A stretch of DNA of 64,000 nt from Candidatus Latescibacterota bacterium (GTDB lineage: Bacteria; Latescibacterota; UBA2968; UBA8231). The stretch is from contig OZ242005.1 of assembly GCA_965204725.1 (NCBI GenBank), forward strand, positions 2,080,001 through 2,144,000. The letters run 5' to 3'. A program made the translations under genes and the position numbers. Below, piece after piece: positions 26,711 through 64,000 of the stretch. The notes below the pieces were generated by a model. That model was given only the letters and a program-made list of their open reading frames with translations. It made no database searches and was not told the DNA's origin. Position 1 is the stretch's first letter. Every line of letters begins with the position of its first letter.

Positions 26711-26909
26711 TGCGATAATTCGACGCACTTGTGCGATGTATTGTCGCACTTTTAGGCCGTCAAAAGGGCTACGCAAAGGGCCTGAGAGACGAATGAAAAA
26801 TTTTGTTTAATTTTTATAACGTATTGTTTAACAGATATTTAGAGCTAAAAAATCAAAAAAATCGGCGCGATTGATGGCTGTTGGGACGCTCATTGGCACG
26901 ATTGTTGCA
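26711..26909 (+). promoter_or_regulatory. Sigma54 promoter module, copy 1
   Basis: TGCG-N9-CGCA boxes at 26711 and 26732, an AT-rich IHF-like tract, and TTGGCACGATTGTTGCA at 26893-26909. Confidence 0.85.
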
Positions 26910-26958
26910 TCAATACATACCGAAGCAACAACCCGCACTCTTCCACAAGGAGGGCATC

Positions 26959-27756
26959 ATGCAACGCTTAGCCATTCGCATCCTGTGCGTCACCCTGACC
27001 GCCGTCTCCAGCACCGCGGCCGTCCAGACCAAATACCCGCACGGCGGCTTTGAGCCTCGCCTCGACAAACTCCAAGGCTTGCTGGACTACATCCACACTG
27101 TGGAGATGATCGAGGTCAAAGCTGGCCCCACGTTGTGGCAGGCCATCGAGGCCATTCCCGTCGCGGCAGGCGTCCCCATCACGCCCGTGCAAGAAGCCGA
27201 CCTGCGCGCTTGGCTCTACGATTTTCTCGTCGCCTTTTCCGGCTCTGGCAACGACAGCCTCGCCGCCCAGTTCTACCTCCGCGAGGGCGTCAACAACCCC
27301 ACGGCCTTGAAGCATATAAAAGAGACCCTAGAGCATTGGGGCGTCCGCAAAGGCGACACGCCCTTTGACCTCTTTCAAGCCATGCACCGCGCCATCCTCG
27401 ACGATCAAGGCAGCGAATACCGCTTTGGCCATGCCTTCTTTCGCCACAGCACCTTCAAGGTGTTTGAGATGCAGGACCGCTACGAGCACTATCGGTCGTA
27501 TCCGCGCAACGTCGTCAAGGCCAAGTTCAAATTGCAGCAAGAGGTGGAAGCGGCACTGCAAGCCGGCGAGAAGCGGGTCTTCACCGACATCGCGTTTGTC
27601 ACCGAAGAGTCAGCCGGGTTCGTTGGGGCGGAAGAGCCGGTCTGCACTCCCTTCTTCTGTCGGCTAGTCTGGGATCCAGAGCGGGCGATGTGGCGCTTTG
27701 TCGAGGTCTTCTACACCTCCAAGCGACCCAATCCTTTTCTCTTCTCGGCCATGTAA
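26959..27756 (+). CDS. Exported family-X protein, paralogue 1
   Basis: RBS, signal peptide, GGF..., LRAWLYDFLVAFS.SG.DSLAA.FYLREGVNNP, RLVWDPERAMWR. Confidence 0.85.
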   Translation: MQRLAIRILCVTLTAVSSTAAVQTKYPHGGFEPRLDKLQGLLDYIHTVEMIEVKAGPTLWQAIEAIPVAAGVPITPVQEADLRAWLYDFLVAFSGSGNDSLAAQFYLREGVNNPTALKHIKETLEHWGVRKGDTPFDLFQAMHRAILDDQGSEYRFGHAFFRHSTFKVFEMQDRYEHYRSYPRNVVKAKFKLQQEVEAALQAGEKRVFTDIAFVTEESAGFVGAEEPVCTPFFCRLVWDPERAMWRFVEVFYTSKRPNPFLFSAM

Positions 27757-27763
27757 TCAACAC

Positions 27764-27806
27764 AATAGAAGCGGGCAGCTTAAAGACAGGCTGTCCGCTT
27801 CTATTT
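27764..27806 (+). terminator. Stem-loop after family-X paralogue 1
   Basis: AATAGAAGCGGGCAGC...GCTGTCCGCTTCTATT inverted repeat. Confidence 0.55.
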
Positions 27807-28002
27807 ACACCCCTGCCGCCCGGCAGGGCGTCGGCTATCTGGTCTGCAACTCCTCGCCCCCGACTGCATCTCTAGCGAAAACCCACCGTCCGTTCCGCAT
27901 CAATCACAGCGTCAGACCTTGCCTCTCTCAAAAACCATAGGCACACTAATAGCAAACAATGGCAGCAAAGACTACTCGCTGTAACTCCCAAAGGAGTCTG
28001 CC

Positions 28003-62150: not shown

Positions 62151-62204
62151 TTACTTATGAGAAGCGTTCTTAAACAATGCGAACATCATGCAAGGAGACT
62201 TGCG

Positions 62205-62414
62205 ATGAAAACGCTAACGCTCTTGTGCAGTGCGCTTATTATCATACCCGCGCCCAGTCAAGCCCGCGAAGGGGGCTATGGTGGCTTTAGCAAAGAAAAT
62301 ATACAGGAGTTTTACGACTACATACACGGCCAAGACATAATTGAAGTACAGGCAGGTAAGGAAAGTGGTGAGCCTTGGGATCGCCCACTTTCTTCTCCTA
62401 GATATCACAGCTAA
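62205..62414 (+). pseudogene. Truncated family-X paralogue 10
   Basis: AAGGAG RBS, signal peptide, YGGFS...QEFYDYIHGQDIIEVQAG; homology is then lost and an early stop follows. Confidence 0.75.
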
Positions 62415-62463
62415 CCAGTGCATCCTGATAACGCTGGTTTACCTTTCCCAATAGGAGCCGATT

Positions 62464-63378
62464 ATGCCTCTGATAATACTACTATTGGTAGCCTATCCGA
62501 CAGGTGCTCAATTGCCCTCGGAGGTGGTACTAGAGCCGGTTTATAGCGGCCAAAATAGCACACACTCGATCTCGTTCAAACCCGCCGCCGACATCGAGAT
62601 AGAAAACGTACGTGCGGGCTGCGGCTGCACCGGAGTCGAATTCCCCACGGGTGTGCTAAAAGCCGATGAAGAATACCATTTGAAGGTCGATGTAAATACG
62701 GCGGAACTTTCTGGCTCCTTTAAGAGCCACGTTGCGGTCAAAATCGCCGGCGAAGAGTCGCCGTGGAACCTGAGCCTCCAAGTACAGGCCGTGCCACCCT
62801 TTCCCGCCGAAATAGATTTTGGAGAAATAGACCTCATTACCTTGCCTTTAGAGCACCACCTATCGCTTGCCCAGATCGCCGACCAGCCGCTCGTGATAGA
62901 CTCGGTAGTGGTGCAGGGCGAAGGCGTCGTAGCATATCCTACTGATGCGGGTACAGGGCTGCTGCTTAGGACAGACGAGGCGTTGACTTGGGGCAGCCGA
63001 GTTGACGGCCTAGTCGAAGTCCACTTGGCAGGAAACGACCATACACTACAGCAGACCGTGCATGTCGAGGGAAAGGTTATAGAGCGGTTCCAAGTAGATC
63101 CATCCGCTCTTTCTTTTGGCATGGGCAAGCCTCACCGACGTCAAACAAAAACGGTCGCAGTACGTGTTGCACCCGATGCGGCGCAGGCTCCGGTCCGGGT
63201 TCAATCGAAGTGCCCAGCACCCACATTCGCTTTTGATTGGCTTTGGGAGACGGACCGGCGGCTAGTCGTCGAGATGCACAACGAAAGCGACTTCCCGATG
63301 GGCCAGACCGATTGCGAAATTATCGTCCACATTGGGGACAACCCAGTAGCGATCCCCATATTCGCCTTGACTCGATAG
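62464..63378 (+). CDS. Exported DUF1573-like multi-Ig-domain protein, copy 2
   Basis: IENVRAGCGCTGVEFP; ends IPIFALTR like copy 1 (IPVLALTR). Confidence 0.72.
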   Translation: MPLIILLLVAYPTGAQLPSEVVLEPVYSGQNSTHSISFKPAADIEIENVRAGCGCTGVEFPTGVLKADEEYHLKVDVNTAELSGSFKSHVAVKIAGEESPWNLSLQVQAVPPFPAEIDFGEIDLITLPLEHHLSLAQIADQPLVIDSVVVQGEGVVAYPTDAGTGLLLRTDEALTWGSRVDGLVEVHLAGNDHTLQQTVHVEGKVIERFQVDPSALSFGMGKPHRRQTKTVAVRVAPDAAQAPVRVQSKCPAPTFAFDWLWETDRRLVVEMHNESDFPMGQTDCEIIVHIGDNPVAIPIFALTR

Positions 63379-63414
63379 GTCAGGCCGAACTGCGAGCAAA
63401 CAAGCTGAGGGTAT

Positions 63415-64000
63415 ATGCTACATTCTATCATAACAAAACTTTCTGAGCGATTGCTATTTTGGGATCGTTGGCTCCATCGGTGGACAGAACTGGACCAACT
63501 GGCGCGAGACCAACGGACGATCCTCGTCTTTTTCCACGGGTATAGCTTAGCACACACCCTCCGACCGCTCGTACTCGCACGTGCGCTGCGAGAGCGAGGG
63601 TATTCGGTCGAGTGCGCCGGACGCGGCCCCCATATTGAGCGAATCGCTAGGGAGGGGTTCCCCATCCACGACGTCGAGACCTTGCCGCAGGAACGGATGG
63701 ATGCTTATGTCGCCCAAGGCGAATACGGCTATTACGACCTAGCGTGGATTGATCGCTGCGTCCAGTCGGAGCGAGACTTAATCCAAGCTATCGAACCGGC
63801 CTTAGTAATCCAAGATATGAAGCCGACCCTCTCCATAGCGGCTCAACTCGAAGGGGTTGACGAGGCCGTTGTGACCCAAGCGTATAACCAGCCAAGCTAT
63901 CCTTTTCCCATACGTCTGATGGAGTCGTTCAGCACCGACCCGGGGCCATTTAGTGCCTATCTCAAGCGCAAGGCGCGTGAGGTGAAACCCCGAAAAAAAC
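63415..64000 (+). CDS. GT-B glycosyltransferase, intact N-terminus of the 33174 paralogue (runs off the window)
   Basis: Not in the ORF track; translated by hand: MLHSIITK...ILVFFHGYSLAHTLRPLVLARALRERGYSVECAG...EPALVIQDMKP, open to the window end. Confidence 0.85.
   Translation, partial: MLHSIITKLSERLLFWDRWLHRWTELDQLARDQRTILVFFHGYSLAHTLRPLVLARALRERGYSVECAGRGPHIERIAREGFPIHDVETLPQERMDAYVAQGEYGYYDLAWIDRCVQSERDLIQAIEPALVIQDMKPTLSIAAQLEGVDEAVVTQAYNQPSYPFPIRLMESFSTDPGPFSAYLKRKAREVKPRKK

Follow-up and report, generated by a model that had tools for sequence, protein, structure and literature searches.

In NosDFY, an ATP-binding cassette (ABC) permease of the ABC-2 type works on a periplasmic partner protein and does not transport a solute across the membrane. 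LanFEG/LanI genes (e.g. NisFEG/NisI) lie beside a peptide gene under the control of a two-component switch, an arrangement shared by the locus described here, and are reported to encode one ATPase, two different ABC-2-type permease subunits and a separately exported partner. MacAB-TolC exports the enterotoxin STII via TolC after Sec transport and periplasmic disulfide formation, according to the account in PMC5985334. The locus that we compare with these systems comes from an uncultured sponge-associated Latescibacterota bacterium with a genome of 5.43 Mb, and was analysed in a window of 64,000 nucleotides of contig OZ242005.1 (positions 2,080,001-2,144,000; coordinates below are window positions unless stated otherwise). 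Our favoured, still tentative, reading is that it encodes an inducible tripartite ABC-2/adaptor/TolC envelope pump acting from the periplasm, whose specificity would be set by alternative permeases and by a family of exported proteins that we call X.

Both MacAB-TolC and the locus have an ABC ATPase, an inner-membrane permease that extends a large domain into the periplasm, a linker there (a candidate in the locus) and a channel of the TolC family; in genome G130, distant paralogues of the linker candidate, a NEW3-domain protein, even sit beside a real MacB gene. However, the permeases of the locus are ABC-2 (type V) proteins and not of the MacB/FtsX kind (FtsX plus MacB_PCD), its candidate linker is a NEW3 beta-sandwich with two anchors and without detectable homology to HlyD/membrane fusion proteins (MFP), it has up to eleven permease genes per ATPase, and X has no counterpart in MacAB-TolC. 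Type I secretion, which uses HlyD and an ABC protein with a fused transmembrane domain for cargo that lacks an N-terminal signal peptide, differs in that the peptides and X proteins of the locus carry N-terminal Sec-like signals and the ATPase has no fused transmembrane domain. LanFEG/LanI is a Gram-positive system with no TolC or adaptor, in which LanI is a lipoprotein, whereas the permeases of the locus have periplasmic domains of ~100 and ~200 amino acids, and no lanthionine machinery is present in the locus. NosY is the nearest solved relative of the permease (E 1.8e-8) and NosF is close to the ATPase, but the locus lacks NosD, NosL and NosZ, has TolC and an adaptor in addition, and NosY is half the size of its permeases; at the sequence level, X shows no relation to NosD. 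The locus also departs from glycocin clusters, which have a SunS/GccA-like family 2 glycosyltransferase (GT2), since its own GT2 gives only generic matches and neither a double-glycine leader nor a C39 domain is present.

The chassis is of known kinds, namely ABC-2 exporters, TolC-dependent tripartite pumps and NtrC-type sigma-54 regulons. As a whole, the locus belongs neither to MacAB (no MacB, no MFP) nor to type I secretion, LanFEG/LanI, ribosomally synthesised and post-translationally modified peptide (RiPP) or glycocin classes. Its new elements are the X family, the NEW3-type linker, the many permease pairs per ATPase, linker and channel, and the copying of whole promoter-gene modules. 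We found no description of the gene set in the literature searched, and excerpts of a sponge-associated Latescibacterota genome paper (PMC12993501) mention neither ABC nor sigma.

An initial annotation of the window, made from the sequence alone, had described over 37 kb of repeated units on a single strand, and the long open reading frames (ORFs) between 26.9 kb and the window end do all lie on the + strand. All-against-all BLASTP of the locus proteins resolved three repeated families and a set of single genes. The nine ABC-2 permeases counted in that annotation are five copies of permease A (A1 to A5, starting at 28003, 41687, 44876, 49355 and 55754) and four of permease B (B1 to B4, at 30498, 46500, 50950 and 53357). 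Its ten exported paralogues are nine full copies of X, 39-68% identical in pairwise comparisons (BLASTP and alignment), the tenth being an N-terminal fragment only. Pfam matches agree with it on the single-copy genes, encoding a NEW3 (NPCBM_assoc) protein, a TolC-family protein (OEP), an ABC ATPase, an extracytoplasmic function (ECF) sigma factor and a TPR protein, and on the two DUF1573 proteins and the glycosyltransferases, namely GT2 and a fusion of a GT1-type glycosyltransferase with a transglutaminase-like domain (GT1-transglutaminase). It had also recognised no named RiPP class, and neither Pfam, NCBIfam and PADLOC scans nor literature searches pointed to a named class. The locus continues for ~7.5 kb past the window end, to about coordinate 71490, and this part encodes an intact GT1-transglutaminase of 841 amino acids, a second GT2 (GT2'), a diverged copy of X (X', at 33% identity), a peptide whose leader is related, and divergent versions of both permeases (A' and B'), which brings the whole locus to eleven ABC-2 permease genes. 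This extension had escaped the initial annotation, as had the kinase and activator genes just upstream of the locus, an IS5 insertion, and the decay of one peptide gene and one glycosyltransferase.

The genes for the NEW3 protein, TolC and the ABC ATPase form one operon in which the TolC gene stands between the other two. The ATPase is free-standing (255 amino acids); its nearest solved relatives are the nucleotide-binding domains of ABCA3/4/7/1 (E 1e-60 to 1e-52) and NosF (E 7e-42), and its match to the drrA subfamily (184 bits) falls below the cut-off of 312. The NEW3 protein, 503 amino acids long in relatives, has hydrophobic anchors at both ends and no sequence match in PDB. Because of its gene position and topology, and with no MFP homology to rely on, we read it as the periplasmic linker of a tripartite pump. 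Within the genus, 17 further genomes, every one X-positive, encode a close orthologue (72-98% identity), and the six X-negative genomes encode none. Distant NEW3 paralogues (27-33% identical) were also observed, as tandem pairs, in 14 of the 18 genera of the family. Such a pair lies between TolC and a MacB-type permease in G130 (L043, C1:706000-725999), this distant paralogous system being the only one where a MacB gene was seen. In G107 (L042, C1:506000-525999) the pair is flanked by TolC and an ATPase that shares 72% identity with the one of the locus. This positional evidence suggests that NEW3-type linkers of TolC pumps are a wider undescribed class.

Identity between permeases A and B is 24-29%, and both match ABC2_membrane_2 (PF12679) well above its cut-off of 27.2 bits (A 102, B 92, A' 94 and B' 93 bits); DUF3526, with a cut-off of 25 bits, is matched by permease B (29.2) and just missed by permease A (23.8). 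Each begins with a single helix and a ~100-residue loop, continues with four helices and a ~200-residue region, and closes with one more helix, so arranged that both large regions would face the periplasm. Most of the sequence variation of the permeases sits in these regions, where the entropy peaks (residues 71-80 and 321-360 of A) are found. Trees show old subtypes kept across species together with recent local copies (A2/A3 96.6%, B3/B4 94% and A4/A5 91% identical), and cassettes of permease A, peptide and X genes are duplicated in the related loci L017 and L023.

Does X belong to any described family? It is an acidic exported protein of ~250 amino acids (32-46 Asp and Glu against 21-27 Lys and Arg), with 0-2 cysteines and a signal peptide lacking a lipobox cysteine at the predicted cleavage site. 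No Pfam or NCBIfam family matches it, and 66 members compared with Pfam at E up to 10 gave no consistent hit; its profile retrieved chance-level matches only from PDB, and a PADLOC scan returned none. A collection of 5.8 billion proteins contains 446 relatives at E <= 0.001, and among the 120 matches listed none bears a Pfam domain or a name. A profile search over 1.84 billion representatives gave 59 matches, of which those inspected were family members or fragments and a spurious repeat protein (P0172). In a protein-language-model feature search, NTF2-like families (DUF4864, SnoaL_2, DUF3828) scored 0.82-0.83, below the 0.9 level, and hhalign gave a probability of 0.5% for X against SnoaL_2 (9 sequences). 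X therefore looks like an orphan family by sequence, and one restricted to a single genus: it is present in 25 of the 168 genomes of the phylum, all from the window's own genus (24 of its 30 other species), and in none of the other 48 genera.

Subclades of X keep fixed neighbours across species. They are found, respectively, after the A1/B1 pair, after the activator or the ATPase, before an A subtype adjoining NEW3, before permease B or DUF1573, and, for 10 of the 12 members of the last subclade, directly after a peptide gene. Among 17 pairs of neighbouring X and A genes, the distance between X proteins is correlated with the periplasmic distance between the neighbouring A permeases (r 0.51); once membrane-core distance is removed, a partial Mantel r of 0.36 remains (permutation p 0.006, for pairs from kin that are not independent); in the reverse direction the partial correlation is -0.12. 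Such a pattern fits co-variation of X with permease A.

Two motifs recur in X. Soon after the predicted cleavage site, nearly all copies have Y-G-G-F-S (e.g. at 37172-37186), with both glycines invariant, and most end in F-x-F-x-x-M/T; these could be docking or sorting motifs. In the database protein P0138, the usual N-terminal part of X is replaced by a signal peptide plus a four-cysteine segment, and in L017 (18924-19170) that segment is a separate ORF of 60 amino acids followed by a broken X.

A search for the -24/-12 pattern TGGCAC-N5-TTGC with at most one mismatch gave 10 matches in the window against 6.1 expected, a number reached in 9 of 100 shuffles, so that this loose count is not above chance and the case for sigma-54 rests on other evidence. 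First, six + strand matches lie in intergenic spacers of the locus, before operons; five are exact, one has a single mismatch, and four are the same 15-mer. Second, all six share a conserved block 150-180 nucleotides upstream and an AT-rich spacer, and this extended motif occurs six times in the 5.43-Mb genome, always in the locus. Third, the 466 kb of the 27 related loci contain 59 matches to the pattern on the coding strand of the genes, as against two on the opposite one; the next gene is X in 37 cases, NEW3 in 6, permease A in 4 and GT1-transglutaminase in 3, and the few matches before kinase or activator genes look like chance. Finally, the genome has one rpoN. Sigma-54 control of the locus is well supported by this evidence, and we infer that the adjacent activator binds the conserved upstream block. 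Known NtrC-type sigma-54 regulons (AtoSC, ZraSR, PEP-CTERM PrsK/PrsR) likewise have a kinase and a receiver-AAA+-HTH activator beside -24/-12 promoters, but the target genes are new here, and the promoter module has been copied together with gene modules, giving six near-identical copies in 31 kb.

A pattern scan using one genome per species identified 27 loci with this gene set, all in Candidatus Latescibacterota metagenome-assembled genomes, two of them labelled Gemmatimonadota. The common order is kinase, activator, X, GT1-transglutaminase, GT2, permease A, peptide, X, X, permease B, DUF1573, TPR, NEW3, TolC and ATPase. Minimal loci (L004, L005 and L006) comprise kinase, activator, X, A, B, NEW3, TolC and ATPase, with an extra X in two of them. 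Using a profile of 17 peptides, we found peptide genes in 15 of the 31 genomes of the genus, in 1-7 copies each, and all 15 genomes are X-positive. Orthologues of the GT1-transglutaminase (at least 68% identity) occur in 11 of these 15 genomes and in none of the 16 without peptide genes, these being counts over related and hence not independent genomes. This distribution points to two layers, a core pump module and an add-on peptide module, the latter made up of GT1-transglutaminase, GT2, permease A subtype ii, the peptide, two X subtypes, permease B, DUF1573 and TPR.

Several proposals of the initial annotation are borne out by these comparisons. The six promoter modules, the motif exclusive to the locus, the adjacent activator and the presence of rpoN uphold sigma-54 control; diversification by duplication is visible in the old subclades and in recent copies up to 96.6% identical; the permease loops do vary, with entropy peaks in periplasmic regions; and X may co-vary with them, in that its divergence follows that of the periplasmic part of the neighbouring permease A (partial Mantel r of 0.36 with p 0.006, for kin that are not independent). 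The annotation had taken a lack of co-occurrence in other genomes as the sign of a false lead, and the same gene set was found in the 27 related loci, which favours the finding. However, two proposals are not supported. The locus is not primarily a peptide locus, as peptide genes are missing from 16 of the 31 genomes and from the minimal loci, and the peptides seem to have not a RiPP-type leader but what reads as a Sec signal peptide ending in A-x-A, no RiPP maturase, RiPP recognition element (RRE) or leader peptidase having been found among the locus proteins with Pfam and NCBIfam.

This second point rests on the 27 distinct peptides that we collected. Their near-invariant start of 26 residues, with a basic tip, a hydrophobic stretch and an A-x-A end, appears to be an ordinary Sec signal and not a RiPP leader. 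The core is hypervariable and has 30-45 residues with six cysteines (C-x3-C-x4-5-C-x8-9-C-x-C-x6-7-C). In 12 comparable pairs, the median nonsynonymous (dN) and synonymous (dS) divergences are 0.09 and 0.36 for the leader, with dN > dS in none of the 12, and 0.33 and 0.42 for the core, with dN > dS in 5 of 12. The peptides have no double-glycine leader, and Pfam and NCBIfam detect no radical SAM, YcaO, lanthionine synthetase (LanB/LanC/LanM), RRE or C39 peptidase among the locus proteins. Matches of GT2 in NCBIfam are generic and all below cut-off, including the mycofactocin glycosyltransferase MftF. In the window's genome, the leader family is confined to this locus; a second leader-like family proved to consist of transmembrane segments of large proteins, not peptides.

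Every peptide gene in the window and in L001-L023 is separated from its sigma-54 promoter by a conserved leader of ~170 nucleotides with a strong Shine-Dalgarno sequence. In most loci this leader holds a mini-ORF that reads MKHIV and then stops; in the window that stop codon has been altered, giving an ORF of 32 codons. It also forms a 7-bp hairpin, identical in 12 of 12 sequences (one G-U pair, no covariation). No Rfam family was found in the window between 20 and 64 kb. We regard the mini-ORF and hairpin as a candidate control element.

The features of the locus within the window are as follows, with their coordinates and strand.
22867-24972, + strand: sensor histidine kinase with periplasmic dCache plus HAMP, PAS, HisKA and HATPase domains (Pfam).
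24975-26345, + strand: NtrC-type response regulator and sigma-54 activator with receiver, AAA+ Sigma54_activat and HTH_8 domains (Pfam, 232 bits).
26722-26908, + strand: promoter module 1, upstream block and -24/-12 element TGGCACGATTGTTGC.
26959-27756, + strand: X1, of the subclade found after the activator or ATPase in relatives.
28003-29559, + strand: permease A1 (ABC-2), 84-90% identical to its orthologues in relatives.
29560-30483, + strand: IS5-family insertion sequence in the A1-B1 spacer (Pfam; NCBIfam transpos_IS5_3, 244 bits against a cut-off of 110).
30498-31958, + strand: permease B1 (ABC-2).
32069-32872, + strand: X2, of the subclade found after the A1/B1 pair.
32957-33121, + strand: promoter module 2, AGGCACGATATTTGC (one mismatch).
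33174-35353 (gene at 33155), + strand: GT1 (EryCIII/MGT-like) fused to a transglutaminase-like domain, a deletion derivative (Pfam).
35347-36405, + strand: family 2 glycosyltransferase, GT2 (Pfam Glycos_transf_2, 91 bits; NCBIfam matches all under their cut-offs).
36436-36622, + strand: promoter module 3.
36685-36761, + strand: conserved 5' leader with mini-ORF (MKHIV...) and invariant 7-bp hairpin.
36795-36958, + strand: pep1, peptide gene, frameshifted in a G run.
37082-37912, + strand: X3.
37954-38778, + strand: X4.
38838-39656, + strand: X5, of the subclade found before permease B or DUF1573 in relatives.
39688-40629, + strand: DUF1573 protein a, exported, with a C-G-C motif (Pfam; NCBIfam OS_HP2 under its cut-off).
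40640-41644, + strand: TPR protein without signal peptide.
41687-43258, + strand: permease A2.
43305-43499, + strand: promoter module 4.
43550-43624, + strand: conserved 5' leader with mini-ORF and hairpin.
43660-43845, + strand: pep2, intact peptide gene (Sec-like signal of 26 amino acids and six-cysteine core of 35).
43963-44787, + strand: X6, of the subclade directly 3' of a peptide gene in 10 of 12 members.
44876-46447, + strand: permease A3, 96.6% identical to A2.
46500-47942, + strand: permease B2.
48159-48345, + strand: promoter module 5.
48395-49306, + strand: X7.
49355-50923, + strand: permease A4.
50950-52401, + strand: permease B3.
52517-53326, + strand: X8.
53357-54808, + strand: permease B4, 94% identical to B3.
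54826-55686, + strand: X9.
55754-57325, + strand: permease A5, 91% identical to A4.
57527-57712, + strand: promoter module 6.
57839-59350, + strand: NEW3-domain protein, putative periplasmic adaptor, whose two ends each carry a membrane anchor (Pfam NPCBM_assoc).
59335-60744, + strand: TolC-family outer-membrane channel, start approximate (Pfam OEP, 123 bits against 22; NCBIfam type_I_sec_TolC under its cut-off).
60741-61508, + strand: ABC ATPase, the sole one of the locus (Pfam ABC_tran, PF00005, 104 bits).
61586-62080, + strand: ECF sigma factor.
62157-62414 (or 62205-62414), + strand: X fragment of 85 amino acids, whose N-terminal ~55 residues belong to family X and are followed by unrelated residues up to the stop.
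62464-63378, + strand: DUF1573 protein b.
63415-64000, + strand: start of the second GT1-transglutaminase gene, a diverged but intact paralogue (841 amino acids).

The histidine kinase also heads the related loci and has hydrophobic segments at residues 15-43 and 271-309; for the activator, the top NCBIfam match is ntrC, under its cut-off.

How might these parts work together? In the pump that we favour, the kinase would sense a periplasmic signal, and the activator with sigma-54 would switch on all modules. Permeases A and B would pair, presumably as a heterodimer, and share the single ATPase, and the NEW3 protein would couple each A/B pair to TolC. X would dock on the variable periplasmic domains as the specificity partner of particular permease pairs, and the pump would pick up periplasmic cargo and expel it via TolC, much as MacAB-TolC does with STII. 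In genomes with the peptide module, the cargo would include the six-cysteine peptides of 30-45 amino acids, which would cross the inner membrane by Sec and be oxidised in the periplasm, possibly with help from the C-G-C DUF1573 proteins; the glycosyltransferases may modify them. If this is true, here is a tripartite ABC/TolC pump built unlike known ones, with ABC-2 permeases, a non-MFP linker, exchangeable permease pairs and unnamed exported partners, and its specificity has been diversified through copied promoter-gene modules.

Several observations weigh against such a pump. A folded X of 28 kDa would not itself be able to leave via TolC. The NEW3 protein, whether whole or as its N-terminal part, has no HlyD/MFP match in Pfam at E up to 10. 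Peptides as the cargo of the core pump fit poorly with genomes G119, G134, G137 and G141, which have X and a NEW3 orthologue and no peptide gene, with the minimal loci L004-L006, in which no small cysteine-rich ORF with a signal-like start was found, and with the numbers in the locus itself, 11 X genes against 3 peptide genes (only two in the window, at 36795 and 43660, the first frameshifted, and a third past its end). The Mantel result may have no other cause than the better record of shared history that rapidly evolving regions keep, in a sample of kin that are not independent. Moreover, this copy of the locus is decayed, with an insertion sequence, a frameshifted pep1, a deleted GT1 and an X fragment.

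The decay is visible at three main places. The IS5 element (29560-30483) has perfect 18-bp terminal inverted repeats. The genome holds five copies of it with at least 99.7% identity, for which reason it is probably active; the spacer in which it stands measures about 19 nucleotides in orthologous loci, and it may be polar on B1 and X2. Compared with an orthologue of 875 amino acids in L003, the GT1-transglutaminase of the window lacks residues 62-195 (about 134 codons, in the N-terminal glycosyltransferase half), and its first 61 codons are in another frame. Lastly, pep1 leaves its frame in a G run (36887-36911, at 36891). Contigs of two public sequencing runs (X4 and X6, labels of runs and not of X genes) have one extra G there and would read through to a six-cysteine peptide, while those of run X1 match the window exactly, so this could be strain variation or a slippage-prone run. 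We had also considered a 14-nucleotide tandem duplication in pep1, which the one-base difference between contigs rules out.

The main alternative, possible if doubtful, is an immunity or detoxification array, in which X would bind, in the periplasm, incoming antimicrobial peptides from kin strains, other symbionts or the host and the matching A/B permease pairs would expel them via TolC. Such an array would be a Gram-negative counterpart of LanI plus LanFEG, and the extra modules would act as 'orphan' immunity against the peptides of neighbours. This alternative explains the surplus of X/permease sets over peptide genes better than the pump does, as the sets far outnumber these genes. It also agrees with the hypervariable peptide cores, with the concentration of variation in periplasmic loops and in the central parts of X, with an inducible two-component switch that has a periplasmic sensor, and with a below-cut-off match of the ATPase to 'lantibiotic protection ABC transporter'. 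However, X lacks a lipobox and does not resemble any LanI, and we know of no killing activity of the peptides. Peptide-free minimal loci are conserved across species, and the X subclades are old, with fixed neighbours, and not shuffled like orphan immunity genes. The parallel itself, two ABC-2 permeases with one ATPase and an exported partner, is drawn with LanFEG/LanI as presented in PMC4828448 and bioRxiv 10.1101/2025.10.09.681468.

Could the cargo instead be a glycoconjugate or a lipid? GT1 and GT2 would then make a glycosylated lipid or small molecule, to be extracted by the ABC-2 permeases and handed to X proteins acting as MlaC/LolA-like carriers. ABC-2 transporters are classically movers of polysaccharides and lipids, the ATPase is closest to the lipid-moving ABCA transporters, a GT1 of macrolide/small-molecule type is conserved with GT2 in the larger loci, and X has weak leads to NTF2-like families (0.82-0.83). 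We nevertheless consider this unlikely. The glycosyltransferases are inherited with the peptide genes (11 of 15 against 0 of 16 genomes) and absent from minimal loci, which weakens the case; the NTF2-like leads have no profile backing (hhalign probability of 0.5%); and a lipid carrier leaves 10 or more diverged X paralogues unexplained.

Somewhat more improbable still is a true RiPP or glycocin-type cluster, in which precursors would be glycosylated, or cross-linked by the transglutaminase-like domain, and leave by dedicated ABC export. A conserved leader with a hypervariable core would be expected from it, as would the co-inheritance of GT1-transglutaminase and GT2 with the peptide genes; the genome's other GT1-transglutaminase/GT2 pairs lie near sigma-54 promoters or a cysteine-rich peptide gene, and GT2 has a match to MftF, below its cut-off. 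However, we read the leader as built like a Sec signal, with n-h-c regions and an A-x-A site, the system also occurs where peptide genes are missing, the orthologous GT1 of the window's genome is broken, and the case is further weakened because no maturase was found in the locus.

That the repeats are a misassembly of fewer genes can be practically dismissed: contigs of four public short-read runs do break at paralogous stretches and none spans the 8.6 kb tested, but the paralogues are 39-97% identical and hence not identical, contigs from two studies (runs X1 and X3) match the unique parts without difference, at least half of the sampled words are present in ten runs, which come from five studies, and single-contig chromosomes of related species carry similar arrays.

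Returning to the pump with X as specificity partner, what might its peptide module mean for the sponge? On this reading, the locus would provide a defined set of three-disulfide secreted peptides, and genes that likely handle them, in abundant uncultured sponge symbionts, which would make the origin of some sponge peptides and the interactions between symbionts testable. Asteropsins, recifin A and neopetrosiamides, isolated from sponges, have ~30-40 amino acids and three disulfides (PMC12426817), and excerpts of that review make no mention of Latescibacterota. The peptides of the locus resemble them in size and in a cysteine count suited to three disulfides, a likeness drawn from their descriptions. 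A bolder and rather improbable extension is that X is a new fold family reading hypervariable disulfide-rich periplasmic peptides, that X and the permease pairs make up an envelope self/non-self system among co-resident sponge symbionts, and that the peptides, possibly glycosylated, are a bacterial source of sponge knottin-like peptides.

Other observations concern neighbouring genes and the rest of the genome. A lone X gene outside the locus (C1:2990580-2991921, - strand) is followed by an ECF-sigma-like gene, with no sigma-54 motif nearby; within the locus, the X fragment comes after the ECF sigma gene (61586-62414), so that X and ECF sigma genes are neighbours twice. One further GT1-transglutaminase/GT2 pair, at about 365.9-377.0 kb of C1, lies near a signal-bearing cysteine-rich peptide gene and an activator; another, at 4.874-4.896 Mb of C1, lies near two sigma-54 motifs (4874267 and 4887557), one of them ~18 kb away. 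Upstream of the locus (1-22000), ORFs are found on both strands and the GC content rises from 0.55 to 0.65 around 14 kb. Beyond its end, two genes for N6_N4 DNA methylases and one for a HerA-type helicase (72346-79400, - strand) form what looks like a defence or restriction island.

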